From: Marsupella aquatica
Taxonomy: Eukaryota; Plantae; Marchantiophyta
Assembly (NCBI GenBank): GCA_973895155.1
Contig: OZ316899.1
Coordinates: forward strand, 11,471,775-11,535,774
DNA length: 64,000 bases
Reading direction: 5' to 3'
Below the pieces are notes generated by a model. That model ran no database searches. It was not told the origin of the DNA and saw only the letters and a program-made list of their open reading frames with translations. Numbering within the stretch: position 1 is the stretch's first letter; each line of letters starts with the position of its first letter. Both the position numbers and the translations under genes were made by a program. This document shows, piece by piece, positions 1 to 40,876 of the stretch.

Positions 1-21
1 CTCCGCAAGGCCGCACCATAC

Positions 22-1275
22 ATGATGATCCGCGGACATCTGCATAAGGAAGGCGTCGATGGGAAAATCCACAAATGCCTAGACTATAACGAGACGATCA
101 TTGTCATGCGAGCTATGCACAAGGAAGAGGCAGGAGGACACTTCGCCCCGGTCACCACGGCTCACAAAATCTTGGACGCAGGTTATTGGTGGCCCACGCT
201 TCATCACGACGTAGCCCATTTTATCCGAGGGTGTGACTTATGTCAGCGCGCAGGCAAACCTCGCAGATCGGGTAATCATCCTCTAACTCCAATCTTTCCC
301 CTTGCCCCGTTTGAGAAATGGGGCATCGATTATATCGGACCATTCACTCCGGTAACCCGAGGTCGACGTTGCCGGTACATCCTTCTGGCTATCGACTACT
401 CGACTAAATGGGTCGAGGCCCGGGCAACGGTCAAGGATGACGCGGCCACCACTGCCAGGTTCCTGTACGAACAGATCTTCACCCGCTTTGGACCTCCCTT
501 GGAATTAGTCAGCAACCGTGGGACTCATTTTTTGAACGAAACGGTGGAAAAACTGACTGACCGTTACCTCGTCAAGCACAGGAAGACTACTCCTTATCAT
601 CCCAAATGTAACGGACTAGCAGAGCGGGCTAATGGCATTGTAGGGAAAATCCTCAACAAAACCGTGGCAGCCCACAAAACAGACTGGGACGACAAGCTTT
701 TCGCGGCGGTCTATTCGTACAACTTGGCGTTCAAGACCACTACAAACCATAGTCCGTATTTCTTGGTATTCGGACAACATGCGCTAGTACCCGTCGAGTT
801 CGAGGTCGAGACCCCCCGGGTGCGCATCCGCCACAGACTATCGGAGGCCGCTAGTTCATCCGATCGAGCATATAAGATCGACAGTCTAGAAGAACACAGA
901 TTGTGGGCATCGCAACGCGTGGCAGCTAAGCAAGAAGCAACGAAGAAACAGCATGACAAGGGACTGCGCCAGGTGGACATCACTGCGGGAGATCTTGTCC
1001 TTCTGTACGACAGTAGGTACATGTACTTTCCAGGAAAGTTACACACACGCTGGCTAGGACCTTTCGTTGTCCAGCAGATGTACCTGAACGGATCCCTACA
1101 ACTATCGACGTACGCCGGCGACCTCTTTCCCAATCGAGTTAGTTACGATCGTGTGAAGAGGTACTTTCATCAGGACAACGAGCGTAATGATGTTCGCGAG
1201 GACGCTTCACACTTAAGTAGGGAGCTATGTGACACGGGTAACGTGTCACTTGACCGAACCCAGGTCGTAGATTAG
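22..1275 (+). pseudogene. Ty3/Gypsy integrase (C-terminal end of pol), family A, probably inactive
   Basis: HHCC zinc finger (H..GGHF..C..C), rve core WGIDYIGP / LVSNRGTHF / NGLAERAN, and GPF motif (KLHTRWLGPF). The second catalytic Asp is changed (SDRG>SNRG). The ORF runs through the PPT and stops about 48 nt inside the LTR. Confidence 0.93.
1215..1227 (+). promoter_or_regulatory. Putative polypurine tract (PPT) of family A
   Basis: AAGTAGGGAGCTA lies immediately before the LTR-start TG at 1228. The tract is imperfect. Confidence 0.6.
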
Positions 1276-1341
1276 GACTTATACGGTCATTAGGACCGTA
1301 GCCATAGCATAGAATAGCACGTATAGCCGTCAAGTTGCCAT
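1228..1341 (+). repeat. First 114 bp of the family A 3' LTR (inverted copy of 8677-8782)
   Basis: TGTGACACGGGTAACGTGTCACTTGACC... matches the reverse complement of 8677-8782, apart from an 8-bp indel and a few substitutions. Confidence 0.92.
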
Positions 1342-1865
1342 CTAGCGCCAAAAAACCGGTCGTCGTATGTCGCACCCCTACCCTGGGCCTTAAATCCGGG
1401 TTAGTGTCGTGGTGCGACCTCGACCACCAGTAGGGGTGAGGGTTCGGGCAAGGAGGTGTGTAGTGACCTTCAATAGCCCTAAGTCGGGCTAAGCCGCTAT
1501 ACTTACTGGTATAACACTCGCATAATTCGTACTTGTCATAGGTATATTTATTTTCCACCGCTGGAATTTTCCCTCAGTTAGTGACGCGGACTAACTCCCG
1601 ACTTGGGGCTTTTCAAGCCATCGACGTGACAGGACCTTGTGACATGCAATGAGCGGCAATCCCTACCATTAGTCCGCACCCGATACGTCCCTTAAAATGG
1701 TGCCTTTGCCCGGACAAAGCATACACACAACACTAGTTACTCTCAGAAACATTAAGGGGAAAAGACTACATTTACTCAGCGAAGCATCAGTTTACATGGT
1801 TGACTCGACTTCAAAGGGGGTCAGCAGGCCCAACGGCAGTCGATGCCCAGTCTCTACGAGGCCCT
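1338..1865 (-). repeat. 528-bp duplicate of the family A LTR end, spacer and partial PBS (copy of 4923-5450)
   Basis: Direct repeat at offset 3585. About five transition differences seen by eye. Confidence 0.95.
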
Positions 1866-4838
1866 TTGGGAGTTCCTTGGGTTCCTTTATTACGGACGGA
1901 ATCTCGGGGCTCCAGGTAACCTTTTTCTTTGCGGGAGGAGTGACGGTTTGAGTAGCATTTTCCTCGGGTATACCGGGTAAGGCCAGCCGGCCAACTGCCT
2001 TCGTAGGGCTCACCCTGCCGGGGAATGCTCCGCCCATTGCCGCATCATCTCCTTCTGGTTTCCCGGGTGCTTCGATTTGGGCCGCTGGTCTGGGCTGGTT
2101 CAGAATATGGGCTTCTCGGACGGCATTTACCCCGAAGACTTCCTCTTCATCCAGGCGAGAGATTAACTCCACCATATTCACCTCTTCTTCTGAGATGTCC
2201 TCCTCCGAGTCACATTCTTCGGGTCCCTGGGGCGTCTCGCCCTGGTAGTCTTCTTCCTTCCAGGACACCGTCGTAGTCGGGTTACCGAATCGTAATTCCT
2301 TCCTTCCCCAGTCGGTAACGACTCGGGCACCGTATAACCAGGGTCTGCCCAGCAGTACTGGATAAGAAGAGGGTCGGACGGGTCGCATCACCAGGTAATT
2401 TAGAAAGAACTCGAGGCCTCCAATCCACGTGGATATCTTGGTTAACGTCCCCAGTGGCATGATCCTGGCGCCGTTTGCTAACCGAATGGCGCGCGCCGTG
2501 GGTTGATAAGATGTATATCCCAACCTTACGGAAGTGTCCTCTGTCATGATGTTTACACCGGACCCGCCGTCTATCGGTACAAACCGAACAGTACAGCCCG
2601 CTATCTCGATAGAGACTTCCAGCGCTCCTAAGTCCTGGTAAATCATCATACAGTCGGCTAAGGTGCTTACCCGAGGTAGCCATCGCCTCCTCTTTCCTAT
2701 CAGCATCTCCTTGAGTTGTTGCCTATACTTCGGGTTATCCTGCAATAGTTGTCCGACAGTGGCTGTGGCTACACAGTTCTGAACATCCTTTTTGATGTCG
2801 TATTGGTTAGACGGTGGGGTCGCAGATTTTACTGCTTCTGCTCCCTTGACTTCAGTTTGCAAGGCAGTCTCAGCTTCCTCGGCTTCTTCGGCCGCCTTAG
2901 CATTGGCAATATCCTTCTTAATGGCTTTCTCGTGCTCTTGGGCTTCATAGGCTTCCAATTGCTTTTTGACCAGTTCCTCTACTCGTGGGTAGAATAACTT
3001 CGGGTTATCCCGCTGGTAGTCTTCCAGCTCGTCTGGTTCCATTGGACTATTCTTGTCTGCGACCGCCTCTTTCTGCTGGGCATCCTTCCGATCTCGTTCT
3101 TTGTACTTATCCTTCTTGCGGGATGATCGGGTAGAAACGCGATAGCACTCGTCGTCCGCGTGCGTTCCCGTTTGCTTGACTGCCTCTATGAGATCGATCC
3201 ATTTGGTGGAGTCGTCCTGCCATTCCATTGTTACCATTTGTACTACTGCATCCGTAATTGGTGGGGCCGCAGGTTGAGCAGCTCTGACGGCGCCGGCCTT
3301 CGCGGCTAGCACCAAGGGGCAGTTTGACGTGGAATGTGCTTCGGTTCGACAGACCTGGCACAATGGAAGCGCTCTCCCATCCCCTTGCTTCCTTTGCTCC
3401 ATGCACTCTCGGGCAAAGTGACCAGGTTTCTCGCAATTATAGCAAACCGGGGTCCGCCAAACTCCGGGTTTAGGTGGGATACTTGGATTGCTGACCATCT
3501 GGGGGCCACGCCCATTTACCGGATACGGATAAGGGGTATGGAACCCTGGATTGTGGCCGCTTAGGGTGCGAGGTCCCGTCATACTCATCTGGAACACCGC
3601 CTCACCTGGATCCTCGAAGAAGTACTCCATCGTGCATCCCTCTGGTTCGGACTGTCCGGGCTCCAACTCCATCTGGTGCACGCGAGTGTTCCATCTTGGA
3701 CATTCTTGCACCACATGTCTCGATTGATAACACTTGGAGCACCAAGCATGCGCTCGGATTTCCGGTGGTTTCTTCTTGTCCGGAGGTTTTTCCGCCAAGT
3801 GCACCGATAGTGCCTTCAGCCGGTCTGTGATTTCGTTCAGCTTTTCTACCTCCGCAGCCTTTGGGTCCGTGGTGACGACTTTGGCTCGCGGTTTATGTTT
3901 ACCCGTATCTGACCGTGATCCCTTCTTTCTTCTGTGGTCTCGAGACTCTGACTCGGTCTCGCTGGAGGATGAGCCAGTTGACGTCGGGCTACTGGACAGG
4001 GAATTACTAGACTCAGAATCAGAGTCTGACAAAGAGCTAGTCCGGCCCTTCTTCTTATATCGTCATTTCTTCTTCCTCTTCTTCTCGTCGTACTCAGAGT
4101 CGGAGTCGCTGAAGGTATGATACCTCCTGCTCTTCTTATGTTTGGTCCTCCTATTAAGCTGAGAGGCGTAGTGCAATTCCCTAAAGGATTCGGCACTATC
4201 AATTGCTTGTTGTAGAGTGGTGGTCTTCTTTTCTAGCACCGAGAACGCCATCCTCTGGGGTAGCGCGTTGACGAACCATTTCCTCAGCAGAGAGTCATCT
4301 GGCTTAGGCCGAATCTTGGCGGCAACCTTCTGGAACCGCTGAAGAAATTTGTGAAGTGAGTCATGCTTACCCATTTGCATTCGCCCGATTTTTGACAGGG
4401 CCCGAGATTCGATCCCGACGGGCCGAAATTCTTGCAAGAACGCCGTTTGGAACTGGCCCCATGTACAACCCGGGGGTTGTAAGTTATACCACGGGCGCGC
4501 TTCTCCTCGTAGTACGCCTGGAAGAATGGTTAGCTTAATGGCTTCCTCACCATTCGCCTTGGCCGTGGCCTCGAACTCAGCTATCCATTCATCAGGGTGG
4601 TCTGTGGGTCGTCCCTTAAAGGGTCGATAGTGAAACCGGGATCGCTGCGACACGTTCTGAGCCGCAGGGGGCCGCAACGCACCTGGTACCTGCGGGGCTG
4701 GTGGAACCGGTGGAGTTCCTCCCGCGATCCTGCTTGGGAAGCCGAGCTCCCCGCTTCGCCGGTCGCGGTATTCTCTTCCAACCTTGATGCTCCGTCCGGT
4801 TGTTGTAAATACGCAGAACGTGACCGGGTAAGGGGCAT
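1866..4838 (-). pseudogene. Family A gag + aspartic protease, truncated before RT
   Basis: MPLTRS start, gag core (FKGRPTDHPDEW..LRGEARPWY), CCHC knuckles (CYNCEKPGHFAREC) and protease IDGGSG..LLGRPWL. One frameshift near 4680 and an in-frame TGA at 4063-4065. Fused at 1865/1866 to LTR sequence. Confidence 0.92.
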
Positions 4839-4916
4839 GCCCCTTCCTTCACGTCGAGTACAAAATCAAAAGTTACTAGCTCACTACACGTCTCCACTCG
4901 TAAGGCAAAATGAGTG

Positions 4917-4935
4917 CCCCCTCCATCTAGCGCCA
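4917..4935 (-). promoter_or_regulatory. Primer-binding site, tRNA-Asn-like (TGGCGCTAGATGGAGGGGG)
   Basis: Lies between the LTR end and gag. Near-complementary to the 3' end of plant tRNA-Asn as I recall it (one mismatch). The same motif recurs at 40854-40872 and 47968-47985. Confidence 0.8.
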
Positions 4936-5596
4936 AAAAACCGGTCGCCGTATGTCGCACCCCTACCCTGGGCCTTAAATCCGGGTTAGTGTCGTGGTGC
5001 GACCTCGACCACCAGTAGGGGTGAGGGTTCGGGCAAGGAGGTGTGTAGTGACCTTCAATAGCCCTAAGTCGGGCTAAGCCGCTATACTTACTGGTATAAC
5101 ACTCGCATAATTCGTACTTGTCATAGGTATATTTATTTTCCACCGCTGGAATTTTCCCTCAGTTAGTGACGCGGACTAACTCCCAACTTGGGGCTTTTCA
5201 AGCCATCGACGTGACAGGACCTTGTGACATGCAATGAGCGGCAATCCCTACCATTAGTCCGCACCCGGTACGTCCCTTAAAATGGCGCCTTTGCCCGGAC
5301 AAAGCATACACACAACACCAGTTACTCTCAGAAACATTAAGGGGAAAAGACTACATTTACTCAGCGAAGCATCAGTTTACATGGTTGACTCGACTTCAAA
5401 GGGGGTCAGCAGGCCCAACGGCAGTCGATGCCCAGTCTCTACGAGGCCCTGCCTCGCACTTGCCCAGCAAGCTCGACTCTGGTTCTCACTCCTTGGTACG
5501 CTCTGACCCTACTCAGGCCGGGACTCCCCGTGCCTCGCCTTTCTTCTGCTGAGATAACTAAGCCTTCTCCCGCTTCCCATCGCGGAAGGGGAAGCC

Positions 5597-5602
5597 TAAA
5601 TA
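5597..5602 (-). promoter_or_regulatory. TATA-like box (TATTTA) of the family A LTR, downstream of the LTR ORF
   Basis: Positionally matching boxes at 19914-19919 (-), 47275-47280 (+) and TATATA at 36059-36064 (-). Confidence 0.5.
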
Positions 5603-5935
5603 CTACCATAGCGGAAGAGAACCGGAGGATACTACCTTCCGGGGTACTACCTACTGACTAACTAACTGCTGACTACCGGTCGCGCTGCACTGACCAGTTG
5701 ACCGTCGACTACGAGTGTGCCAATCGGAATGGCAGCGGCCAAGCCTACTGACAAACTCTAGTACGTTGATGGACTCAATCCTACGTTGGCTGATCCTAAC
5801 TGACCGGCCCTAATTCTTCCTACTGCCGCTAATCGGCGCCTAATGACAGTCATTCTGTCGTTATGCCTAACTAAAAGATGCCGTTGACTTAACCGCTTCG
5901 CGCGGCGCCTGCTTCTACCCTTCGCTAACTACCCC

Positions 5936-8383
5936 TTACGTGTGTGCAGTGGTTGGACCAGGGCTGGTCCCCTTGTCGGGGCGAGACCTCGAGCCGCCTT
6001 GATCAGAGGTGGGCCCAGGTTTTCCCCGCTGGAGGATGAGCAGGGTGACGCGGTCCTGCAAAGCCTTGTTGTCCCGTAATGCTTCCTCCGCCTCGTTTGC
6101 AGCTTCGTCGGCTTCAGTCTGGAGCCGCGCCACCTCCAAGTTGAGCTGGTCGATGGCGTCGCGATGGACCTGGTCCTGCGCTAGCAATTTATCTCGTTCG
6201 GCAGAGAGACTAGCCACCTGCTGTGCTGCCTGCAGGAATTGTTTGTTGAGGTCGGTCAGGCTGGTAACCCGAGCCGAAGATTCTGAGCGTAATTGAAGCA
6301 CGGTGTCGTCCAGCTTCTTGAGTTCGGCCTGCGCTCCGCTTAACTCCTGGGTTAGTCCGTCCCTCTGTTCGACAGTGCGGACTAAATCCTCGCGGCGGGT
6401 CGTTGCCTCCTCCTCGAGGTGCTCTACCAGCATCTGGAGACGCCCGATCTCATTCCCCTTCGCCATGAGTTCTTCTTCCAAGCGGCTGACGATCCGTGGT
6501 TGGTGCTCTAACATGAAGAAGGCTGGCTGAAAGTACGCCGAGACTTGTTGTCCGATGTATGTCGCCAACTCCCCAGACATAGTCTGGCTAAACTTCTGGA
6601 CCAGGTCGTAGGCCATGGTCCCCGGGGCTACTTGGTAGTCCTCCATCCTCTCGGGTACCGGTGGTTCCTCGGCAGGGGCAACGAGCTCCTCCGTAGTCAG
6701 CGCTGGGGAGGGGAAGGTTTCTTCAGGTGGTGGAGGGATTGGGGGTGGTTGTACTGCAGGTAGCGGAGGCTCAATGGAAGGAGGCGGTGGAATTTCCACA
6801 GGGGGCGGTTGCGGAGTATTAGTCGGGGCTTCCGGCTCGGGGTTTGTCCGAGGGACAGTAGTCCGCGTAGTCGGGGTTGCCTCCTCTGGGGCGGGGGTGA
6901 CATTACCCGGGGCTGAGGTGGCCGTATTCTTTCCTCTGGCCTCCCGCCGTGCCTTGTACCAGGCGAGGATAATGGCGATATGACTCCCCAAGTAAGTCTT
7001 CCCTCCAATAGCCATACCACCCTGAGCCCGCTTCAGCTCCCCCGAGAATCTTCGGTAGAAGAATTGGGCCCAGTTTCGTCGTTTGTACTGTTCCACCTGC
7101 ACTATCGTGTAGAGGGAAATCTCGGATCGTGGCTCAATCATGTGTAGGGTAGTCCGTATGAAGTTAAGCCGCTCCATACAGGTTAAGTTGGTGCACGCCC
7201 CCTGCTTGTATCTGTTGTCCGTCTTACCCTCGGGTTTGAAGTGCCGCGGCGTATACTCCTTATCCCGAATTCGGATTTCCACCGGCACCGGCCCGGTTGG
7301 TAGGCCGAAAATTTGCGTTAACCGATGCTCCGTGAGTGATAAGGTCTGCCCCGAAACCTTGGTGGTTGACGCATCAGTGTCAAAATTGGAGATGAACTCA
7401 CAAATCTCCTTCGGCCCGGTGGCGCACGGCCTCCATAGTAAGTGGGCGAACCGCTCCAACTGATGCTCCTTGAGATAGTCCGCATGTTCGAGTTTCTTGA
7501 TCGCGATCAAGACTACCTCGGGGATGCGGATTACCTGTAATAAGTTGGACTTCGGGTTATCCGGGGGCCGTCGGGTCTGGTTGGTCGGGGGGTTTGCCGG
7601 GGCAGGTGCAGGCGCGGCGTCGGTCCGTGTTGATTCGGGGGCCGTCGTAGTCCTTGACCGCTTACGAGGATGCTGTTTGAGTTGCGGACTAGCTCGCTCG
7701 GAACCCGAAGAACACTCCGCGTTGATTACTGGACGGACTTGGGACTGGTTCGGCGGTACTCCGGTGGTCATCGGTTGAGGCGCTGGGGTAGCCCTATCCC
7801 AGTTGAAGGCGTTGGAGCTTTCCCCGAGGAACGTGAGATTACGCGCCGCTTCCCGTTGTCTGCTGATGTCTTCTTGGCGCTTTTCGGCTACGATCTGCTG
7901 GTCTAGGTACCCCGGAATCTTGTCGAACTCCGCTTGAGTAAGCCGCTGGTTGCCCTTCAGCTTAAAGAACTTAGCTGGAACCTCAAGAATCGCCTTTGCT
8001 ACCGATCTAAGCCCTTCCTCGCTGAGATATAGTTCGGTGATGTAGTCTCGCAGCTCGTTATAGCTAGAATCCCTGGTGATGGCTGTCCTTTCGCAATTAA
8101 CCAGTGCTACCTTGGTTACCAGCTTCGTGTACCTTCGTTCGTAAGCGGCTTTCTCGGGGCAAGAGTACCAGTAAGTCTCGGAGAACTTAGCACCTACCTC
8201 GCCAAACAAGGTCCAAAATCCCAAGGCTATGAGGGTCATACTAACCTCGTAGTCCGGTTCGTTGCGTCCACGTTCCCACCTGGCTGGTCCTTTCTCACGG
8301 AGGCCTCGCTCGTCCTGACTAAATCTCGCCACATTCCGCTCTTCTCCCTCGATAATTTCCTCGTAAAGGTTGACTGGATTCAA
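5936..8383 (-). CDS. LTR-encoded accessory protein, 815 aa (N-terminal unknown domain, PMD/Transposase_32-like core, Pro-rich linkers, coiled coil)
   Basis: Uninterrupted ORF. The core EFISNFD..TKVSGQTLSLTEHRLTQIFGLP..NWAQFF..TYLGSHI is homologous to ORFs at 8798, 21124-22122 and 52887. The C-terminus is heptad-rich. The start codon is uncertain (the track uses TTG). The domain call is by motif resemblance only. Confidence 0.85.
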   Translation of the reverse strand: MNPVNLYEEIIEGEERNVARFSQDERGLREKGPARWERGRNEPDYEVSMTLIALGFWTLFGEVGAKFSETYWYSCPEKAAYERRYTKLVTKVALVNCERTAITRDSSYNELRDYITELYLSEEGLRSVAKAILEVPAKFFKLKGNQRLTQAEFDKIPGYLDQQIVAEKRQEDISRQREAARNLTFLGESSNAFNWDRATPAPQPMTTGVPPNQSQVRPVINAECSSGSERASPQLKQHPRKRSRTTTAPESTRTDAAPAPAPANPPTNQTRRPPDNPKSNLLQVIRIPEVVLIAIKKLEHADYLKEHQLERFAHLLWRPCATGPKEICEFISNFDTDASTTKVSGQTLSLTEHRLTQIFGLPTGPVPVEIRIRDKEYTPRHFKPEGKTDNRYKQGACTNLTCMERLNFIRTTLHMIEPRSEISLYTIVQVEQYKRRNWAQFFYRRFSGELKRAQGGMAIGGKTYLGSHIAIILAWYKARREARGKNTATSAPGNVTPAPEEATPTTRTTVPRTNPEPEAPTNTPQPPPVEIPPPPSIEPPLPAVQPPPIPPPPEETFPSPALTTEELVAPAEEPPVPERMEDYQVAPGTMAYDLVQKFSQTMSGELATYIGQQVSAYFQPAFFMLEHQPRIVSRLEEELMAKGNEIGRLQMLVEHLEEEATTRREDLVRTVEQRDGLTQELSGAQAELKKLDDTVLQLRSESSARVTSLTDLNKQFLQAAQQVASLSAERDKLLAQDQVHRDAIDQLNLEVARLQTEADEAANEAEEALRDNKALQDRVTLLILQRGKPGPTSDQGGSRSRPDKGTSPGPTTAHT

Positions 8384-8797
8384 TCAAAAAGGCGAGCGGA
8401 TGGCAGCGTCCGTGAATTCCAAAAAGGTAAACGTGAGCGACTGGCCCGCAGTGCCATCGGCTCCTCTCTTATGGGGGTGCCCGGACGAGCCCGAGCGTGA
8501 GAAGGTCAGGCCGTTTGGTCATTGATAACGAGCTGAAGTCGGCGTCTCGGTCCAAGCGTGATTCTTCTAACTGATTTTTACTCCGCTGCCGCCACCGTAC
8601 CTCGGTCGCGCGTAATAATCCCTTTCCTGAACTTGTAATTATTCGGTTATCTTAACCTACTCCTAATCTAATCATAATGGCAACTTGACGGCAATACGTG
8701 CTATTCTACGCTATGGCTAATGACCGTATAAGTCCTAATCTATGACCTGGGTTCGGTCAAGTGACACGTTACCCGTGTCACAATAATACCGCTGGCA

Positions 8798-10661
8798 ATG
8801 CAGCTACATTTTGCACAAGATGAGGATGCATACTTCACAGCCATGCAGACCAAAAAGTATCAAGGTTTCATGGCCGGATCGGGCTTAGAGACCTTTGTTA
8901 GATTGCCATGGCAGAGGCCGGAGATGCCAGACTCAGACTTGCTAGAATTTGTGGGAGCATGGGACCATGACTCCAACTCGACCAAGATCTATGGGAGAGA
9001 CTTCTATCTCACTCCCAATGTGATTGCCAAAGTATTTGGCTTGCCAATGGGCAACAAGGCTAAGGTAGAAACTCAAAAGAACTTGCCGGACAAGGAGTTT
9101 AGATCGTTCCCCAGGCCATCAACAAAGAATGGCTTCTTCCGCAACACCTGCAACCCGCATATTGGAGAAATGATCAATTTCTTGTGGGTGACAATGCATT
9201 GCAACTTGCCAAGGCCGGAGATCGGCAAAGCACAGGTTAATCTGGCAGAGAGGCCAGACCCAAGCCGGGACTACAATGGGTACCTCCTCAACCAACTAAG
9301 GAAGATATTGAAGGAGGAACAACAGGTGATTAGCCAAGGGAGCGTGTCCGGCTTGGTTATCACATGCCGTTGTTGTGCCAATATGCCCAGAGTTGAATCT
9401 TTGCCCCAATCCTTCCCTTGCAGGCAAGAGCGCCAGAAGAGGAGTCGGAGCCAAGGCCGGCAGCAAAGAAGCCCGACCTGCCCGACAGCCCCACAATAGC
9501 TCAGATCTTTTGGCAGACGCCGGAACCCGGGCCAATGCAGCAACCGGCCATAAAGAGCCTTCTACAGATACTGAATAAGGAGAAGGCAACATTAGCACCA
9601 GAGGTAGTGGTAGCGGGCATCGCAAGAACCGCTAGAGGAGAACCCATGGCCGGGGCCATGAAGAGAAGTAGGTCGGAAAATGAGTTGGGAATGTGGATGT
9701 ATGTAGGAGCCACCAATTTAGAAACCAAGGGACATGGACCCAGGGTTCCCAGTCCTGAGAAGGTGAGCAGAGGCTGGGTGCGGGAGGCGGAAGAGCAAGC
9801 CGCACGTATGCATAGTCCCCGGCAGGATGTCGGATTTGCGGCTAGATGCCGGGTTTGCGGCTAGTCCTAGAGAGGATCCGTAGGCACCAGGATACCCGGA
9901 AGCCGAGGAGCACGTGGAGGAATACCACAAGGACTTGGGTTATGGGTCGGATCGCTCGGTACCAGGGGTGCGGACCTGTGGCCATTTCATCCTCACACTT
10001 CCAAGAGTGGTGCGTGGGGATCCACAACACCAGAAAAACCCGAAGTCTCCCCCAATGGACATACCTCCTCCAAATTACCATGAGAGACAACAGGCCGATC
10101 ACAAGTTGTAGCAGCAATTCAGTGACCTGGAGGAAGCAACCCTGGCCAAGGAGAAGGATTTTCCAGGCGGAGGATGGTCGTAGGACATTTGGTGTCTTGC
10201 AAGGACTCAAGCTGGGCCTTTGCCCACGTTTGATGAGATACGGAGGGCGGCATGGGAAAGAAGGCTGCGTTGGGAGATGTCGGCATCTCCTAACCACTCC
10301 ACCTATGCACATTCTAGAGTCCTGAAGTATGGGAGGATGTGCAGACTACTCGTCCTCGACATCTTTGGGGTAGAATTGGAGACGGGGCCTGTCCACAAAG
10401 AGATGTTGGAGAAAATCTGGTTGGAGGGCGCACTGGCCTTGGAGAGGATGAAGAAGGAGGAAGTCATCCGGCGGCTTAGAGAGAAGGAAGCCGAGGCTGG
10501 AGATTTAAAGGCGGTCAAGCAGGCCCAAGACAAGCTGCTACAAGTTAGGAAGCATGAGATAAGCATCATACAGGGGCAACTGGCCCAGACCAAGGAGGAT
10601 TTGGCCAAAGCCCTCAAGGAGAAGGAGAAGTGGAAGCAGGAGCTGAAGAAGACAGAGGCAG
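8798..10661 (+). pseudogene. Family B LTR-encoded protein, core and start of coiled coil (frameshifted)
   Basis: LLEFVGAWD..TKIYGRDFYLTPNVIAKVFGLP core. The segments VPGVRTCGHF and VIRRLREKEAE are shared with family C. Confidence 0.82.
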
Positions 10662-13600
10662 TGTAATAGAGGGGTTAAGCCCTTAAGGATATAAAAATTA
10701 TCTAATATGAAAAAAATGGTTTTCAATGACCATGTTGAGGACCTTTAATAGCTATTTAGGCATCTTTGAAGTATATTAAGCTTGAATCATGCCAAAGTGC
10801 ATGTAAAGATGTTATGGTCCCTCATCCGACTCAATAGTGAAAGAAGAATAAAACCATCAATGGATTGGTATTGGGAAAATCTGATAGCAAGGAGAGACCT
10901 ACTTCAACCCCTCAAGGAAAAGTTTGGCTTTGGAATTGAGGTTCAATTTTTCACAAATTTGAGTTAGACGGCTAATTCTAAGGTGAATTAATTAGTGCAT
11001 TTTAGCAACAAGTAGCTCAATCTTTTATCAAGTTTGTGTTGCCCCACCTTCCAGTAGTTCATGGGAAAAATTACACCAACTAAGTGATGGAAATTGAGGA
11101 GTTATTCCATCCAGAATTTGAACCGGTTTTCATCCGGTTTTTGAGCCGATTTTTGATCCGGTTTGGACATACCATCCGGTAGAAAAACTACCATAACTCT
11201 CAAACCATTTATTCAAATCAAGATCTGTAAAGTGTGTTGGAAAGCTTTTTCCGAGGCGGTTAAGAAATATATAAAGAAGTCTGAAAATGGATTCGAAATG
11301 ACCCACTTAATATTACGAGTCTCCAACCGGTGCAACCAAGAGATATCCAAAATTTCCGGACAAATAATGGAATGAAGATTTTGAAGCGTTGTTTTCACAC
11401 CATTAGACCTTCAAGATGTCTGAATTTGGACCAATAGGAAGTATGATCCATGGCTAAGGACCTTACCCAATCAAAATGGTTGGATAAGTATGAAAGGATA
11501 CTATGAAAATATATACCCATTCATTGGAAGATGGAGAGACTAGATAGTCAAATTCTTATTACTCTAGCACTCCTACATTTTACCTACACCAATGGACACC
11601 ATCTCAAGACCTCATTTTTGGAAACTTTTCACTTTGAAACCAAGAAATATACTACCTGCCTCCCATTTACTACTACCTTTGGAGGTGTCACTTTCATGCC
11701 AAACCCTCTCAACTCCATTGACCCAGCAGTAGACCCCACATGGTGAAGCCTGACACTTAAACTCCCAAATAGTAAAAAGTTATTCAATCCGGAAGTTGAA
11801 CCGGCTTCCCATCCGGTTTCCCACCCGGTTTCTGATCCGGTTTTGTGTTTATGGCCTTATAAAACTTAGTATAGGAAGAATTAGACCTTGAATTTTTGCT
11901 AAGCACTTTATCTCATAGTCTAGTTTCATACTTTAGCATTACTTTTTACTTTTACACTTAGGTTAGGAATTGAAGAGGCATACCTCTTCAACTTTTGTTT
12001 AGAGGAGACTTTTCCCTAAAGTATAAGAGGGAAAGTTTCCACCATTTTACTCACACTTGCATTTCACTTCTGAAAGTCTCCTTCTTTGAAGAGAAGTAAT
12101 AGATTCATATTATCTTTGGTAATCTATGACTTGTGTTTGGAATTTAGTGCGTGACCATACTTGCTAAAATTTGTTTGATGTGACTAGCAATGCCTTGCCA
12201 ATGTTCAGATTGACTGAAAATGCATGCTTGAGATCATGCAAAGATCTGAATTAACTTGAGTATTTGGAATACTTATCAAGTATTTTTGGAAGATGCACCA
12301 GACGAGAACTCACAATTACCATAGATCCAGAAGAGCAATCTGGAGAGTTGATAAAAAGAGGAAGCTTGTTCGGAGTGATTAGTACCGCCTTGTTTTGACT
12401 TGGCCATAAAGTTAATATGGACTTACTTCCATATATCTTTTACAAATTCTTAGATGGTTGGCTTTAAAGATGAGCTTTAGGCATCAGCCTAATTTAGTCA
12501 GACTCTCTGTTGACTCTTAATTGTGCCTAACTTAGTCATAGATTGCTAAGTGGCGAGAGGAGATGAGACATTTGAGGCTCACCTAACCCTATCTTTACAC
12601 TTCCGGCTTTTGGTTGTTTTCTTATATTTTTTTATTTTTATTTTTTTAAAATTTCATCTTTATTCCGCGTGAACCCCACGGATGAGGAAACCAGCAGGCC
12701 CAAGGCAAAAGGGCCACAAGGCCAAAAAGGACAACAACAGATGTATCCCTGCATACCAGAGGGGAACAACACCACAAGACCAATCCCGAGCCAATTCAGG
12801 AGCTAAGCAATGATCTTAATACTCCATGCTACAGTGTTCAGCCAAATCAGCACATGATTAAATCATCATATGAACAATAGAGCATCGAAGTATCTAAATG
12901 GGTCCCTACATTTGGTGAAGATCATTCACCGTCATGATCCTGTCAGATTCACTGGTCATTGGGATGTTAGTTTCTGTACCCTACCCCTAAGTAGCCTACG
13001 TTGCTCTGCCTCCACCATAGTCCTAGCCTGGGAAAGCCGCCCAATCTTATGGCCAGAGCAAGACGAAGCAGCCACAGCCGACAGGTGATCAATAGTCTCA
13101 GTGCAGATATTAATCTGATCAAAAATGCCGTTTCTGGTCCAATCAAACGTCTGGCCATTCCTGGCAAGCCACAGGGACCACAAAGTTTGGTACATCAAGA
13201 AAACCTGTAACGTATGCAGAGGGGTCTTCCCCTGCATCGACAATAGGAGATGCACCAAACCAAGGGCCCGGTTAAATAATCTCCCATTCAGCCAGCCCTG
13301 CATTACCAGCCAGCAAGCCCCTGCATGGCGGCAGTCAAAGAAAATGTGCGGGATAGTCTCCACCGCACCGGAGCAGAGTGTACATACCCCATCAGACTTC
13401 CCAATCCTCAGAGCTTTGGAGCCAGAAAATAAACCCTGGGCAAGGATGCGCCATAAGAAGGTTCGGGCACGAGTGGAGAGATCTGCAGTCCATATAACCT
13501 GCCAGACCTTACACCATTCAATCTCAAGCAAGTTCACATTCCAGATCCTGTTAAGCCTGCAGAAATCAGATCCCTTGGGTCTTAGCAACTCAAACACCCT

Positions 13601-14080
13601 GAGATTGGGAAGCCCAAATTTAGTCAGGGGCACACTGTCCTTATCAATCCATCTCCATAGTCTTGCCCCTGAGTCCCTAGTTGTTTCTCTGCAGATAGAT
13701 CTGTGAAGAGTGGCAATAAAGGATAGACAAAATCTCCTATCGTCTTCCGGTAGACCCCTCAGTCTGAGCATCTTCTCATTCATATCCATCCACTGATTAT
13801 TCAGAGCAGACCGCAAATCGTTGACTTTCCTGTTTTCTTATATTTTTAGAATTTATTATTGCACTGTTGATGATGCAAACATCACAATACCTGAGGATGT
13901 ATTAAAAATTCTTCCACTTGACCTAAGCATGTCGGTAAAGGCTTGAAATCTGAGATAGGTTAGCTTAACTATCTCAAAGTATGTTAATACAATCTTTTAG
14001 GTCTCACAAGCTCTTAACGGAAACAAACTCTGGTTGTTTAAGAGGAAAGTAGTTCATATTTCCTTAAACCCTACTCTACA
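10662..14080. mobile_element. AT-rich solo LTR (about 2.2 kb without the nested LINE)
   Basis: TGTA...TACA termini and an exact 5-bp TSD GGCAG at 10657-10661 and 14081-14085. No internal gag or pol. Confidence 0.88.
12632..13830 (-). mobile_element. 5'-truncated L1-type LINE (ORF2 C-terminus with zf-RVT)
   Basis: ORF 12956-13816 has WTADLSTRARTFLWRI..CTLC..ETIPHIFFDC. There is an A-rich tail and an about 17-bp TSD, TGTTTTCTTATATTTTT, at 12615-12631 and 13831-13847. Confidence 0.9.
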
Positions 14081-14085
14081 GGCAG

Positions 14086-15300
14086 CTCACATAATGGTCT
14101 GCAACAAAGCCATGACCGAGGCCCAGAGGAAGGAGCGGGCACTGAAGGATGAGATCAAACAATGCCACAAGGCCCTCCATCAGAAAAAAGCCAAACTTGA
14201 TGAGACCTACAAGGGCATCGACAAGTTAAAGGAAGACCTTGACAATAGGTCGACCAACTTTCAAGCCGAGCTGCATAAGAAGGATGACATGCTTGATCAC
14301 CTACAAGAAGATGAAGAAGATCAAGTTTGATGTTGTCCATGAGCTCAACGCGGAGCTAAAAGCAACCCAAGAGGAGAGGGCGGCCTTACCAAAGGAGTTC
14401 GACGAGAACATGGCAAAGTTGGAGCAAGCTTGCGGGGATTTAGACGAGACCCTGGTGGAATTGGAGGACGCCGCAGAAAATAGAAAATCTGTAGAGGCGG
14501 GCGGACAACCAAACCGAGCGGTTGAAGAAGCAATCAGAGGAGCTAAATCGGCTGGCCGCAACAAGTGGACCCCCGGTGGCGGCAACAGGGTTGCCAAGCG
14601 TGGTACTGACCAAACGACAAGCCATGGTACCCTCACCTTTGCCGGAAGTAAGTGGCAAGGGGAAGGCACCAGCTGCTTGGGAGGGGAAGGACAAAAAGTG
14701 GAAGCCTTCCGGGTCAAGGAGTCACACTGTTTGTCAGGCCACCGTGGCTGAGGTGGAGAGCATGGCACCGGCCTTATGCGAGGTAGTGGCTGTCAAGGTG
14801 GTAGTCTTGGAGGTAGGCCAAGAACACCGGTTGGGGGAGGCCATGACAAGCATTGACTCAAGGTTGCCAACCATTGATTGGCATCAACCGCAACCTTGGG
14901 AGGACAAGACACCCCGACTCATAGAACGAGCCTATGAGGAGGACCACTACGGCAGGGTAGCCAGCACCGGGAGGGACAGTGTAGGAGCCGTAAGGGTGGA
15001 CCCCCATTGGCAAAAGCCGGGCAGGCAGAAGCCGAGGCCGAGGTAAGGGTGGGGCCCGGTTACGCCAAGGATGGGTTGACCCAGTCAGGAGTGGGTAACC
15101 TGTCAGAGGACGGGACACCTACATTGGCCGTCAAGGAAGGATTGGGGGCGTCCATTGAGGGTCAGCCACCGGCGTCACGACGGTGGAAGGGCGCCGTCCC
15201 TTTTAGGGAGGGCGAACTTGGAGGTAGGAGGCGTGAGTGGGCAGAGCGGGCACAGACCTCAAGATTTAGAATTAGGATCAGGACCAAGAAGCGGCCCTGA
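14086..15300 (+). pseudogene. Family B LTR-encoded protein, coiled coil and C-terminal tail (continues after the insertion)
   Basis: KKTEA|AHIMVCNKAMTEAQRKERALK joins across the GGCAG TSD. It aligns with family C EETHIAANNRAMAETQRRERALK. Confidence 0.82.
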
Positions 15301-16310
15301 AACTTAGATTAATGGGATTGCGGATCCACTAGTAAGAGCAACACTTGTGCTCTTGCCCCGTTGTACATAGGTAGATTCCACTTATCGGTAGATTTGGCTT
15401 ACGCAGCAAGGAAATAGGTAGGTACGCTGTCGGGATAAATACCTGGGTAGCGGGGACCCCAAGGCCTTCTTCTTAAGCAAGTTTTTAGTGCACCAGCAAG
15501 GCTGGGATCAATTAGTAAAGAGAAGCTCTTGGTTAGTTATGCTCTGACCCTTGTGTACATTCATGTTTCCTCATGCCTAAGAGCTGAATAGAGTTGGCCT
15601 TCGGGCTTAGTTTGCAGACCTTGTGTATGAGAAGTACTCCTTGTATGACAATGGCATGGCATACCTTAGTCAGTAGGAGTCATCTTTCTAATTGTGTGTC
15701 GCACCAACTTGTGTGAAGAGTGCCCACATCAACCAAAGAGACAAAGGAAGTTTAGAAGCAGGGAGAGTTGGATGTGTTGAGCTGAGAGGGATCTTAGCGG
15801 CTACCCAAGCCGATTGGGCATCATTCTAGGGGTAGAATCCAAACATACCTAAAGGGAGACCAATAGAAGAGAGTAAGGAGAGGCCTAGAGTAAGTTGGGT
15901 GCATATCTCATGACCCGGTGAAGGATCTGTCCAGTATATGTGGTTAAAAGTAGAGAAGAGTTAGCAGCATCCCGTGCTGATAAACCGCGGAACCGGCCTT
16001 GGCAAGCAAGAAACCGGTGGGAATCGGCTTGTTCAAGGAGGGTTCTTGGATTTAGAGAGCCATGGGACACCCACAGGCACACACCCACTATCTTCGCCAT
16101 TTTGGGCGTCGTCCCACAAAAGAGGAAACGAGTCGGCCAAGTAAGCATCAATCGCGGAACTCGACTACCTTAACACTTAGCTCCGGCGTTGCCCACTCCA
16201 ACGCCAAGCTCCCTTATGGTCCAGGCCCAGATAGGCCATTCGGGGAGGAATTAGCATGGGAAGACTTGTGGGCGATGAGATGTGGCACTGGCAAAGGCAA
16301 AACGCCAAGC

Positions 16311-17617: not shown

Positions 17618-17621
17618 CTTG

Positions 17622-19238: not shown

Positions 19239-22200
19239 TGTCACGTCGTCGGCTGCGGCCTTAACTCAGACTTCAACTTAGACGGGCACATCCCTCGTAA
19301 ATCTGAGGGTTTGGGCAGGAAGGGAAGCACGTAATGCACCTTATTCTCGTAAACTAGCGCTAAGTGCGCATACTGCTAAATACGGACACCTCCTAGGTAT
19401 GGTTTGTGTTCCGCCGCCGGAACGTACCTTAGTCGATAGCAGGATCGACCCCGGCTTAAGGGCTTCTAAGCCTTCGTGCTGTCCGCCTTCGATCCGGATT
19501 CGATGATACAGGTCCTCAACCCGTGCTCACAACCACTTACCCGTAGGCTGCACCCTGTGCACGTCTCGGGTAGTGCATTCGGCCTGGCGCTGCCACCCAT
19601 ATACGAGAAACCCACACACATACACGCGCACATGCATACAATCTCGATTTACACGAAGGAAAATGATGGGAAAGGATTTTACTACAAAGGAAACATATGC
19701 GTACACTTAGTTGACCCGACAGCCCCGGAATGAACAGGTTCAAGGCCGAGGGTGCACACTACAACGGAGCCAGGCTCCGCACTCGCCCGACGAGCTTAGT
19801 CCTACCCCCTCCCCTTGGTACTCTTTCATTCCCAGAGGTCGGGACTCCCCGCACATACCGCGGACGTCCAACTCTGCAACTAAAAACCCCCCTGCCTCTA
19901 CCGAGGGGTGCACTAAATACTAAGGGACGAGGGATGGGGTGTCCTCTCGCCAAAGATTCGCTGACTAAGGTCCTAACTAAGCTGACAGTCAGGCCGGAAA
20001 ACGGCTGTGTCTTATTAGAAGATCCTAATCTACGCAAGCTGGACAGCATGGCAGCACTGCTGTACCTAAGGCAGGTGCCTGTCCCAAGAGCCTGACTAAG
20101 CCAGTCCTAATCCTAATCTATTCCTACTCCGCTGCTAATGCCTGGCACACTTGCCAGAGCCGCCCGAATGGGAGCGGCCATCCCGCTGCCTTCGAAGCCT
20201 GTCATTGTCCGCCTTGAGGAGCTGGACCTGGTCCAGCAGAGATTCGTTCTCTCGCCTCGCCGCGTCCGTCTCCTCTACTGCCTCCTGACATGCCTCCTCC
20301 AACTGCTGGGCGTCGCTCGTCAGTTTACCCGCCAGCTGGTCCTGCTTCTCGGCCTTGGTTTGGAGCCGCGCCACCTCAGCCTGCAGCGTGGCTATCTCCG
20401 CCGTGTCCCGCTGGGCCCGTTCCTTGGCCTCCTCCAGGTCTTTCTGCCAGGTGACGGTTTGATTCTTCAAACTGTCAATCTGGTTCCGGAGTCGTGTAAT
20501 CTCGGCCTCGTTCCTAGCTTTGGCCTGTTCGGCTAGGGCGGTAAGAGCGTGCGCCTTTGCTAACAACTCATCGGCGGCTGCAACCTTGGGTCGTAGTTGC
20601 AGAAGCTCAGCCTCTTGAGCCGCAACTTCGTTCTTTAGGTACACGGACTCCACCCGGTACCGCTCTATCCTCTGAAGGGCCTCTGACTGGGCCCGACCTG
20701 CCTTTACTACGGCAACCAACTCCTGATTGAAGAAACAGGCTACCTTCCGGGCCATGAACTCCCCGGTATCCCGGGCAATTTGATGAGAGAAATCTCCCAG
20801 AAGCCCGTTCAAAAATGTACCTGGTACGAAGAGTTCCGGGTGGTCCAGGTTGTGCCTGTCCGGAGTTGGGCACGGGCAGACGTCAACACGCGCGGGGGCC
20901 GGGGCAGTGACGTCCAGCCCTGGGGACGTAACGTTGGAAGGGGCTGGAGTGTCCTCCTGCAGCAATGTCCGGTTCTCAGGAATAGCCACCGGTGGGTCTT
21001 TGGGAGACCCGGGCTCGGGTAAGACCTCCGCCGTACCGACTTCTGTACTTAGCTCGGCTTGTTGGGTTGCATCAACGGTTGCGACAACCGACCCATCCGG
21101 TACCTCCTCGGTTACGACTACAACTACTTGTGGAGGTGGGGTGGGTGAAGCTGGCGTGTCCGCTGGACTTCGGGCCTCGGGTTGGGGCCGTCTCTCCAAG
21201 GCCGGGAAAACCCACCTAGCTGGGACCAGCTTTGTAAGTTGACACGGGGAAGGGTTCGTCGATCAAACCGGGCGTACCACTCAAGAATGATCTTGATGTG
21301 GCTAGCGAAATACGCCTTCCCGCCAATGTACAGCGTCTTCCTTCGCCGCTCCATCTCTTCATGGAATTTCTTAGCGAAGTACGATGCCCACTTCCTAGGT
21401 CGATAGTTCTCGACCTGGATAACTTGGGCGGCGGAGATCTCCCCCCGGGGTTCCATCATGTGGAGGGCGTACCTCTGGAACTCCAGTCGCTCAGTTATCT
21501 CGGGGATGAGGCAGGTCTTCATCACGAACCCGTTGTCCACTGCTCCCTCTGAGGGAAAACTTGAAGATTGGTACTTGGCTCCCTTGCCCCCGGGAGCCCG
21601 TGATTCGACTCGATGGTCACCTTCGGGTAACCCGAAGATCATCTTGAGCCGTTCTTCCGTGAGGGACATACTCCTTCCCCGCAGCCGAGTATGTTGACGC
21701 GCGTCGTCATAATTCTTGACGAACTCCGTCATGTCCTCCCCGTAGTACCTGCAAGTGTTCCAGGGGAGGGAGGCGAGGTGCTTGAATCCCTGAGTCTTCA
21801 GGTACACCGCATGCTTGGGATGGAGGATGTTTTTGTGAATGTTTTCCCCCATGCGGTGCATTGTCACCTTGGCTACGGCTACCATGGCCAACGGTAACCC
21901 GGATGCAGTGGTGTATTCCTTCCTCTTCTTCCCCCGTGACTGGCTCGGGGAAGGTGATACTTCCCCATCCTCCCGATTGGGCCTGGGTAGTGCCACTACC
22001 GTTAGTAACGGGCCCGGGGCGGCCATGGTCACCATGTTGTCTGCCGGGGCCGCTCCTGGGGTCAGAGCAGGGGGTGGGGACGATATAGTGTCGGCCCCTG
22101 AGCGCTTGTTCCTCTGGGCCACCTGGTCAAGGGTGGGGTAGCCTTGTCGTCATCGCTAAGATCCATGGCGTTGATGATGGAGCGTACTTGTGTTGGCTGG

Positions 22201-23247
22201 GCGATCGGTGGTGGGGTTTGGCTAGGCTGCGGCTGAGGCTGAAGCTGAAGCTGAGCCTGAGGTTGCATGGGTACGGGTACGGGTACGGGTATGGGTTCGA
22301 CTGAGTTGGTCATGTTGGTTGATGGCCGAGTTCCCATGAAGCTCTGTAGGTGTTGGTAGAAGTTCTTCGAAGCAAGTGCAGACGACCTTGTCGAACGGGT
22401 AGTGCTGGACTCACTGTTGATGATAGCCCGAACCTGAGCAGGGATGTGGTCGAAGTGATGTCGTTGCAAGTCGATCGTACCCGGGATATTGAAGACCTCG
22501 TCCGGAAGCCGAAGCAATGCTTCCCAGAAACCGATATATTTGTCTCCGTTGAAGAAGTACCCAGATACTTCTGCTGGTCGGTAAAGCTCGCTCTAAGACG
22601 GGTAGTCAAAGTTAAGGATGTAGTGGTGTCGTCCTGCTAGGCGGATGGCTCTCTCGTACTCGCGTTCGATTTCGTATCGGCGCGGGTTGGCGTGTTTTAA
22701 TGAGTCGGCCAAGTGCCTTCTGGTAGATAGGAACTGCATCCAGAATCGAATGGCCGAGCTGGAGAGGATCGTGTGCGACATTCAGAGGAGATAGTAGTGG
22801 CGACTTAGAGCGAACGAGAGAGCTGGGGTCGAAGCTGGCGCGTGGACTGATGGACTGGTGCACTACAAAGGGTTGGCTCCCCTTTTATACCTTGAGGGCT
22901 TGTCGATCCCCCGACGTCTCCTCGACGCCCATAGGCTGAACCGCTCACGCTTGTGGTGTACCGGCCACTCCGCCGGTCTGAGTCAGCGCTTGTCAATGGC
23001 CGCTTCTTAAGTACTTTATACGGACCCGAGGGAGGGGCCCCTCCACACTCGTAACCCGGGTGTGCGAATAGCGACCCGCCGCCAGTCCGAACCTGAATTC
23101 CCCCTTATTGCCTAATGATGTCCTACCCATAATGATTACCTAAATACTGTCGTTATGCTAATAATAGTGGCCTAAGACACTCCTAACGCGCGTGCTAAGC
23201 GTAGTTAGACCGAATCACTCATTAACCGCCGTACCGGTGGCGTCACA
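19239..23247 (-). mobile_element. Family D giant solo LTR (4,009 bp) carrying the whole accessory gene
   Basis: The minus strand reads TGTGACGCC...CGTGACA, with an exact TSD AAATG at 19234-19238 and 23248-23252. Its 3' half aligns with 46273-47954, which is followed by PBS and gag. Confidence 0.93.
20135..22781 (-). pseudogene. Family D LTR-encoded protein (one stop, two frameshifts)
   Basis: ORF pieces 22593-22781, 22062-22517, 21124-22122 and 20135-21199 are colinear with the 815-aa family A protein (EFVKNYDD..MIFGLPEG..GGKAYFASHIKIILEWY; PGTFLNGLLGDFSHQ; coiled coil). Confidence 0.88.
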
Positions 23248-30600: not shown

Positions 30601-30772
30601 TAAAGGGGTTTTCCCTAGTAAGTTGGCTAAGGCCGACTTTGGGAGCAGTATTTTGTACCGGTCCCGTTGCCTTTGCCGTTCTCCTTTCCTTCTCCAGCAA
30701 TTTCAGCAGATTCTGCATGCCTGGTTGTTGCATCGGCAAGTCCTCCTTCCTCGGCCTAAACACCTGCTCGAT
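27661..30772 (-). repeat. Family C 3' LTR remnant (5' part deleted) containing the C-terminal half of the LTR gene
   Basis: Colinear with 40877-44003. Coiled-coil ORFs at 29387-29956 and 28567-29439. Confidence 0.92.
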
Positions 30773-34627: not shown

Positions 34628-35280
34628 TGTCACGCGATTGACATGGGTCTTAACACCAAAAACGTCACTATGGGTGCCAAAACCATCTCCTTGTACCTGA
34701 GGATCACGAAGGGATGTTGTGAATGCCGATAAACACCAGTTTATGCCCTTAACACCAGACTATCATAGCAAGACTCTATCACACATCACCCAAGCTCAAT
34801 CCCAAGGAACCAAGGTTGGGGATCAGATCTGCGCTCATGATAGTTCTGGTGAGAAGGGGTCTTCATATCGGGCCCGTACACACAGGGCCTAGCACTACGG
34901 TGCGCAATAGGTCTATACATATGCTTACTGTCATAGGTATGTTTCTATTCTGCCGCCGGAATGTACCCATAAACCAGTGACTCCTGACTGATTCCCGGCT
35001 TAGGGACTTCTAAGCCATTGCCCCACCACTCTGCCATTCCACTCTCAACAATCAGAGCTATGACAGTCCTCACCCAGCCCGCTTCAATGCACCCGGTACA
35101 CCTCTCAGTGGCGCTGCTAGTTCCATCATACACTCAGATTGCCTCACACACACACACATCCATGAGAGAAATGAGGCCTGAGAGGAAAACTCAATTAGAT
35201 TCAAAGATGTGCACAATAGTTCACTGAGAACACTTGATCCGAATACTAGGGCCGAAGGCTGTCTCCTCCAGATTGTGACG

Positions 35281-35336
35281 TGCTTGCCCTGCAAGCCCCG
35301 TGCTTGCCCTGCAAGCCCCGTGCTTGCCATGCAAGC
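35281..35336 (+). repeat. 20-bp tandem repeat, about 2.8 copies
   Basis: TGCTTGCCCTGCAAGCCCCG twice, then a partial copy. Confidence 0.85.
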
Positions 35337-36564: not shown

Positions 36565-36740
36565 GCTGACCTGAGCTAAGCTGAAGCCGTGTTGACCTGA
36601 GCTAAGCTGAAGCCGTGCTGACCTGAGCTAAGCTGAAGCCGTTCTTACTTGAGCTAAGCTGAAGCCGTGCTTACCTAAGCTAAGCTGAAGCCGTGCTGAC
36701 CTGAGCTAAGCTGAAGCCGTGCTCACATAAGCTAAGCCGT
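36565..36740 (+). repeat. 26-bp tandem repeat, 6 full copies plus a partial copy
   Basis: Unit GCTGACCTGAGCTAAGCTGAAGCCGT. Confidence 0.95.
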
Positions 36741-40872: not shown

Positions 40873-40876
40873 AAAA

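Follow-up and report, generated by a model that had tools for sequence, protein, structure and literature searches.

An accessory gene and its rearranged locus

We analyzed a 64,000-nt stretch of the genome of the liverwort Marsupella aquatica (contig OZ316899.1, positions 11,471,775 to 11,535,774 of the forward strand; hereafter the window), in which a long terminal repeat (LTR) of a Ty3/Gypsy retrotransposon, referred to as family A, almost certainly contains an accessory protein gene. An earlier interpretation made from the letters of the DNA (the sequence-only reading) had proposed this arrangement for a 3,830-bp segment with TG and CA ends, followed by a primer-binding site (PBS) and gag. 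The features of the locus are as follows.

4953..8782, minus strand: family A 5' LTR, 3,830 bp, TG...CA ends
5936..8239, minus strand: accessory open reading frame (ORF) from Met49, 767 aa; the stop-free frame reaches 8383
4920..4935, minus strand: PBS, TGGCGCTAGATGGAGG, 17 nt beyond the end of the family A LTR
1866..4838, minus strand: family A gag-protease, interrupted by one frameshift and a single stop and cut off at 1866
1..1275, plus strand: Gypsy-type integrase, reading through the polypurine tract (PPT; 1215-1224) into the LTR start; no chromodomain match
1228..1341, plus strand: start of the family A 3' LTR, 90% identical to 8782-8677
1338..1865, minus strand: duplicate of 4923-5450 (LTR end and PBS), 99% identity; a rearrangement or an assembly join

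Read on the minus strand, the first letters of the family A LTR are TGTGACAC and the last are GTGCGACA, and TG...CA ends with a short inverted repeat are present both in this LTR and in a solo LTR found elsewhere in the window (solo LTR S, described below). Inside these two LTRs we detected no direct repeat, no PBS and no second LTR start or end, indicating that the unit is not an LTR-ORF-LTR arrangement and bearing out the identification of the 3,830-bp segment as an LTR. The gag-protease region matches Retrotrans_gag, zf-CCHC and, weakly, Asp_protease_2 in Pfam, and carries a frameshift near 4700-4720 and a stop codon at 4063-4065 while the ORF in the LTR is intact, just as had been described.

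The first 114 nt of the LTR are repeated, at 90% identity, at 1228-1341, directly after the integrase and the purine tract. The sequence-only reading had pointed to this recurrence at 1228, and the match stands, but the piece comprising integrase, PPT and LTR start (1-1341) is on the plus strand, opposite to the family A LTR, and was joined to it via a rearrangement. Given this opposite-strand join and the 99% identical duplicate, the locus holds no intact two-LTR element. The other end of the family A element, which would show a target-site duplication (TSD), lies outside the window. The frame of the integrase crosses the PPT and terminates 48 nt within the LTR (window 1228-1275).

Contigs from four sequencing runs (two studies) span 30 of the 30 bins into which window positions 1-10000 were divided. 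The summed depth of these contigs over the ORF was 9-17x that over gag-protease and 1.3-1.9x that over the non-coding LTR in 4/4 runs, which, since contig depth is not copy number, is a hint only. An Rfam scan of 4800-8900 returned 0 matches, and the look-up listed no RNA records carrying the LTR.

Related LTRs carry homologs of the ORF

The window contains several further LTRs or LTR remnants related to that of family A.

19239..23247, minus strand: solo LTR S, 4,009 bp, TG...CA, TSD AAATG on both sides; broken ORF homolog at 20138-22781
46228..47954, plus strand: 3' part of the E3 5' LTR, carrying the C-terminal part of the ORF; PBS at 47968, then gag-pol
40877..44390, minus strand: E4 5' LTR remnant with a more distant ORF homolog; PBS 4 nt downstream
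27661..30772, minus strand: E4 3' LTR remnant, deletion-fused to integrase, carrying the same part of the ORF; identity to the 5' remnant 94-97% along its whole length
8783..16075, plus strand: E5, an E4-type LTR with an ORF homolog; the family A insertion cuts it at 8783, and a piece resembling a long interspersed nuclear element interrupts it
34777..36798, minus strand: related ORF-less LTR-like piece of ~2 kb, with the downstream TATA box retained

Solo LTR S provides the strongest indication of where the gene resides. A TSD-flanked solo LTR holds LTR sequence only, yet S has a homolog of the ORF that keeps the N-terminal part, the core (40% identity to the family A core) and the C-terminal part. 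In E4, a PBS, gag, protease (PR), reverse transcriptase (RT), RNase H (RH) as well as integrase (INT) lie between two 3.1-kb LTR remnants, both of which contain the 3' part of the homolog, so that this part of the gene flanks gag-pol on both sides. On these grounds, placement of the gene inside the LTR, as originally claimed, can be regarded as close to certain. The accompanying suggestion that each element carries two copies of the gene fared less completely: the 3' part is present in both E4 remnants, but both remnants are without the LTR start, so the evidence for two copies is partial, and no intact element with two LTRs exists at the family A locus. As judged from their sequences, several related Gypsy families carry the gene within LTRs of ~4 kb.

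The 3.8-kb unit could alternatively be a chimera in which rearrangement or misassembly has placed an internal extra ORF against a short LTR, and the locus is indeed heavily rearranged, with an inversion at 1338-1341, a 528-bp duplication, a truncated gag-pol and the deletions in E4. This explanation is largely refuted and in our view very improbable, given that an independent TSD-flanked solo LTR has the same layout, that neither LTR includes a second LTR start, end or PBS, that the LTR start matches the sequence following the PPT, and that contigs from all four runs of the two studies cover the 30/30 bins of 1-10000.

The PBS and gag reported after the family A LTR are both present, but the PBS, which we take to be of the tRNA-Asn type, lies 17 nt beyond the CA end. 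There are no tRNA genes in the 64-kb window, hence no host tRNA to pair with it. The gap between the CA end and the PBS measures 17 nt in family A (4936-4952), 13 nt in E3 (47955-47967) and 4 nt in E4 (40873-40876), and the family A value falls outside the 0-5 nt window that PMC6317226, in its available text, sets for the LTR-PBS distance. Because the LTR end of S/E3 is fixed by a TSD, the long gap is real, and integrase would have an unusually long overhang to trim.

Extent of the ORF and selection on its product

The uninterrupted 815-codon ORF of the sequence-only reading corresponds to the stop-free frame at 5936-8383; this figure is a stop-to-stop length, and the first ATG is codon 49 (8239), from which a protein of 767 aa is likely produced. 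Variants were collected from the contigs of the same four runs over 7880-8500, yielding 40 rows, of which 35 in-frame rows were used and 5 upstream rows were dropped. Downstream of Met49, 16 of 25 variants were synonymous, whereas the expectation for transitions is 34% (p 0.002; ratio about 0.30). In the stretch from 8240 to 8383, upstream of Met49, the count was 4 of 10. Matches to diverged relatives end at 8247 in 3/4 runs, and six database proteins, representing five distinct lineages (P0008 and P0222 form one cluster), start at about the position of Met49. The variant pattern, the end of the matches and the start positions of the relatives together make Met49 the likely true start.

The ratio of nonsynonymous to synonymous substitution (dN/dS) in the window was 0.19 for the cores of A and S, where dS is near saturation, and 0.21, 0.22 and 0.46 for the others, i.e., 0.19-0.46 in 4/4 ORF pairs, so that neutral evolution, which this comparison across copies could have revealed, is not supported. 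Among the 12 indel rows shown, apart from four further rows, none falls within the ORF and 7 fall in the non-coding LTR. It is hard to doubt, on this evidence, that the ORF encodes a protein maintained by purifying selection, and such selection is better evidence of function than the intactness of the frame, from which function had originally been suggested.

Position of the ORF relative to the LTR promoters

Three features bear on which part of the LTR contains the ORF and on how the LTR might be transcribed.

5596..5602, minus strand: TATA-like box TATTTAG, the inferred promoter of the genomic RNA; the U3/R border is inferred to lie just downstream
8466..8473, minus strand: candidate upstream box, CATAAGAG, located 234 nt ahead of Met49; no more than a lead
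5593..5935, minus strand: strand-specific TTAG cluster from the ORF stop to the TATA-like box; 10 seen versus 1.4 expected, CTAA 0

The sequence TAGTATTTAG was found downstream of the ORF stop in the family A LTR and two relatives. A TATA-like box after the stop, conserved among related LTRs, was an element of the sequence-only reading, and conservation was confirmed between solo LTR S and the LTR without the ORF (identity at 31 of 47 nt; 0/100 shuffles as good), but not between S and the family A LTR, where the ungapped likeness does not exceed chance (34/100 shuffles), although the boxes are co-linear in a gapped alignment. The sequence 3' of the box is the best-conserved DNA among the LTRs. 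The ORF-less relative retains only the downstream box, as TATATAG, which favors that box as the main promoter, and the ORF therefore probably lies in U3, upstream of the TATA-like box.

We also considered that the ORF might reside in R/U5, with the upstream box as the main promoter and the ORF as the first cistron before gag in the genomic RNA. A canonical TATAAAAG precedes the ATG of the homolog in solo LTR S by 108 nt, and the downstream TATTTAG is a weaker TATA variant, both of which would suit such an organization. However, the box that the ORF-less relative keeps, with 31/47 nt matching, is the downstream one, the best-conserved LTR DNA sits 3' of it, and strong-stop DNA would presumably need to exceed 3 kb, leaving R/U5 placement an unlikely alternative to placement in U3.

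On the sense strand, TTAG occurs between the ORF stop and the TATA box 10 times in A (1.4 expected) and 11 times in S (1.0 expected), and near the LTR start 5 times in A (1.1 expected) and 6 times in S (1.2 expected); the word was picked after the sequences had been seen, and these counts are a lead only. Word enrichment in general (26 tests, uncorrected) exceeded the shuffles for only part of the non-coding regions. A TTAG-rich unit of ~26 nt also forms a tandem array at 36517-36737, in the U3-like part of the ORF-less LTR.

Domain architecture and predicted fold

The protein can be divided into three regions, as follows.

7832..8239, minus strand: N-terminal helical domain, residues 49-184, kept in full-length relatives; model pLDDT 90
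6929..7543, minus strand: core domain, residues 281-485, basic, with a predicted fold like that of VANC21 and the plant mobile domain (PMD)
6014..6643, minus strand: C-terminal acidic region, residues 581-790, behind a Pro-rich linker; a likely coiled coil, as indicated by composition

The linker between the N-terminal domain and the core holds a PRKR motif. A fold search with the N-terminal domain gave a best Z of 5.6, tied among generic bundles, and no match in the Atlas, which does not imply a new fold. The C-terminal region has weak coiled-coil Pfam matches in the window homologs, and a profile search of PDB sequences weakly matches coiled-coil chains.

The core was modeled with a pLDDT of 96.8 and a pTM of 0.92. 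The top Foldseek match for this model was DNA-bound VANC21 (prob 0.96, TM 0.54, E 0.053), and VANC21 was likewise the top match among 48,161 chains in VIA (Z 8.2, rmsd 4.2, 195 of 205 residues aligned; runner-up 2.6), with a Z of 8.4 for its second crystal form. The core aligns with VANC21 residues 297-534 at 10-12% identity; the score is moderate, yet the match covers the whole domain and stands far above those of other chains. The best entry in a BFVD fold search was unnamed (E 0.006, TM 0.33). The Atlas gave weak leads to a cluster of PMD proteins (0.88; 20% of members carry PF10536) and to DUF1985 (0.87; 13% of members).

In Pfam, the ORF protein itself had no matches (no PF10536, PF20167 or DUF1985). 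Among 50 aligned relatives, 5 match PF20167 (Transposase_32; best E 1.6e-7) and none matches DUF1985. The VANC DUF1985 domain and the PMD of MAIL1 are described as structurally alike (10.1101/2024.09.27.615353, PMC13547354), and PMD-A is reported to be encoded by Gypsy elements (PMC5418596, PMC6317226). A VANC21/PMD-like core agrees with these papers, and the model leads us to consider a VANC/PMD-type fold highly probable.

The sense orientation of the ORF, together with the matches of 5/50 relatives to PF20167, which is also given as a marker of an Athila extra ORF (PMC11728184), might suggest a membrane protein of the env-like type that has been put forward for Athila sense ORFs. However, the protein has no transmembrane segment (the highest 19-mer hydropathy is 1.22), and its core is basic and matches the fold of a DNA-binding protein; we thus give the env-like interpretation almost no weight.

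Comparison with known systems

The predicted fold invites comparison with the VANC proteins of VANDAL (Mutator-like) DNA transposons (VANC21, PDB 9LNJ/9LNK). The present protein resembles these in its predicted core, in being an accessory product of a transposon, in its variable linkers and in its likely coiled coil, a feature predicted for VANC21 as well (PMC13547354). It differs in being encoded by a retrotransposon, inside a Gypsy LTR rather than in a VANDAL/Mutator element, in a liverwort, whereas VANC is described as dicot-specific (PMC13547354), and in its 10-12% identity, lack of a DUF1985 Pfam match and extra N-terminal domain. Tandem arrays of an 8-9-nt motif in the style of VANC were not found here.

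With the extra ORFs of non-chromovirus (OTA) Gypsy elements such as Ogre, Retand and Athila (PMD-A, Transposase_32, Athila ORF-1), the gene shares its status as an extra ORF of a non-chromovirus element and the PF20167 matches of its relatives. Those ORFs are placed in the internal region, once per element (PMC7264820), in contrast with the present gene, which occupies the LTR and persists in solo LTRs, and whose product matches neither PF10536 nor PF20167. The REXdb survey, in its available text, records LTR lengths of as much as 5 kb or so and sorts extra ORFs by whether they lie upstream or downstream of pol (PMC6317226). A literature search, which worked from listings with most subscription papers out of reach, returned no plant Gypsy element with a gene inside the LTR and no VANC-like retrotransposon protein; PMC12844716, as far as its accessible text goes, treats the question as open.

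Genes within LTRs are familiar from animal systems: MMTV (mouse mammary tumor virus) sag and lentiviral nef lie inside or overlap U3 and are copied into both LTRs. These belong to vertebrate retroviruses with much shorter LTRs, and the proteins are unrelated.

Proposed function

The reading we consider best, and somewhat favor, is that the ORF encodes a nuclear DNA-binding factor with a VANC21-like core, carried in U3, that keeps the LTRs of its own family active. An anti-silencing or trans-activating role as such would be roughly a matter of even chances. More tentative still, though worth stating, is the full proposal, in which the U3 of a liverwort Gypsy lineage would house a VANC-like anti-silencing gene of sequence-specific action together with a promoter for it and its target motifs.

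Under the proposed mechanism, every cycle would transfer the gene, as part of the 3' end of the genomic RNA, to both LTRs. In the 5' LTR the ORF precedes the start of the genomic RNA, and in the 3' LTR it follows pol, so it would need an mRNA of its own, probably made from a second promoter near the 5' end of the LTR. The coiled coil would allow the protein to oligomerize, and its binding sites would be short motifs repeated within the LTR, for which the TTAG clusters are a candidate only. Since recombination between the two LTRs reduces an element to a single one, the complete gene would persist in every solo LTR. VANC is reported to bind short motifs in the non-coding parts of its own family and to cause loss of methylation (PMC5735166).

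Several observations weigh against this interpretation. A shared fold does not show function, and the fold match has its own limits: the Foldseek E-value is 0.053 with 10-12% identity, a Z of 8.2 is at a level that VIA calls common for models lacking a Foldseek match, and a profile search of PDB sequences returned 48 weak matches, mostly coiled coils, with no VANC21 among them. The likeness of the upstream box of family A to the TATAAAAG of S is not beyond chance. TTAG is common to all of the families, unlike the family-specific VANC motifs, and both TTAG clusters are just behind a stop codon, so that they could act in RNA. The observed/expected ratio of CpG is 0.83-1.26 in A and S, 0.48-0.63 in the gene-bearing E4 and 0.86 in a chromovirus piece, and so does not discriminate. 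The window includes no intact family A element with both LTRs. Finally, the PMD proteins MAIN and MAIL1 are reported to function in silencing as well (PMC5418596).

These considerations lend some credit to a PMD-like protein with another nuclear job, such as anchoring the pre-integration complex or bringing it into the nucleus, selecting the chromatin to be targeted, or restraining the element that encodes it. The fold match carries no functional proof, host PMD proteins act in silencing (PMC5418596), nuclear-import and regulatory roles have been proposed for other extra ORFs (PMC7264820), and the CpG data do not show lasting protection. On the other hand, the one match with a solved structure is an anti-silencing factor, sequence-specific and bound to DNA, and host PMD-C proteins are reported to counter Polycomb at specific motifs (10.1101/2024.09.27.615353). 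We consider another nuclear job possible but rather unlikely.

A separate observation concerns the TATA-like box, which reads YAGTATTTAG at 5593-5605, 19913-19925, 23139-23150 and 47270-47282, including a second copy in S near its start. It agrees with the VANC21 motif YAGTATTAY (PMC5735166) at 7 of 9 letters. The likeness is probably due to chance, although the box might serve as a protein-binding site.

The function of the extra ORFs of plant retrotransposons is a long-standing open question (PMC7264820), to which the present case offers a testable answer, given that the predicted fold matches the only transposon anti-silencing protein of solved structure and that the placement of the gene lets both LTRs and every solo LTR inherit it. 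If the proposed anti-silencing function is correct, this would be the first VANC-type system of its kind to occur in a retrotransposon, and VANC-like counter-defence would no longer be confined to the DNA transposons of dicots but would include liverwort retrotransposons. Every LTR would then be a self-activating module, and deletion by the host through LTR-LTR recombination, its usual way of removing retrotransposons, would leave intact counter-defence genes across the genome. It would also suggest that the PMD/VANC fold has served transposons since early land plants, which bears on whether the PMD originated in transposons or hosts, left undecided in PMC5418596 as far as its available text goes. 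Genes borne by LTRs may moreover escape surveys of ORFs upstream or downstream of pol, as well as pipelines with a short limit on LTR length.

Lineage of the elements and relatives of the protein

The domain order of E4 is PR-RT-RH-INT (Pfam), and the family A integrase is 60% identical to that of E4, with no chromodomain match, identifying the elements, from their coding sequences, as non-chromovirus (OTA) Ty3/Gypsy. The best named matches of the integrase are from Calypogeia fissa (51-70% identity), followed by Marchantia (49%) and Adiantum (39%). An additional archaeal-type RNase H (aRH) was found neither in the scanned ORFs of E4 nor in its three-frame translation; the RT-RH of family A is outside the window. 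Given the absence of a chromodomain, and of an aRH in E4, an OTA lineage without aRH such as Tat Z1/Z2 fits, and integrase matches from liverworts are a further likeness. Tat Z1/Z2 lineages without aRH have been reported from liverworts (PMC10508981, PMC13468544), and the accessible text of these papers gives no account of LTR size or of genes borne by LTRs. The Tat clade in the sense of REXdb (TatI-III, Ogre, Retand), which is marked by an aRH, does not fit what was seen in the relative E4.

A profile built from three cores in the window found 85 proteins in the protein database at a threshold of E<=0.001, and among 30 looked up, 10 were from Calypogeia fissa and 1 from Riccia sorocarpa; the named relatives of the core are liverwort proteins. 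A word-index search with the full ORF confirmed 0 of 7,995 candidates at E<=0.001, a longer search with an alignment confirmed 0 of 7,984, and metagenome scans confirmed 0/74 and 0/251 pattern matches. The Riccia sorocarpa protein P0058, a distant relative of the core, is labeled 'DDE Tnp4 domain-containing', and DDE_Tnp_4 occurs in 2/50 aligned relatives. The core domain may also travel with liverwort DNA transposons, or the gene model of P0058 may be fused.

Other elements in the window

At the gag-protease junction of E4, window positions 34628-37094 comprise a 2,467-bp TG...CA insertion with the TSD CTGGT, which seems to be an element of ~430 bp in which the ORF-less 2-kb LTR-like piece is nested. 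E4 itself apparently sits inside a chromovirus-type integrase (25933-27660, 44400-45020), whose chromodomain-like end, as judged by eye, resumes near 44800. A 0.9-kb repeat, 87% identical between its copies at 16714-17619 and 45277-46207, precedes a tRNA-Met-type PBS at 17622 and is probably part of the LTR of another family. A Copia element at 54663-60151 has identical terminal repeats of 189 bp and stops in pol.

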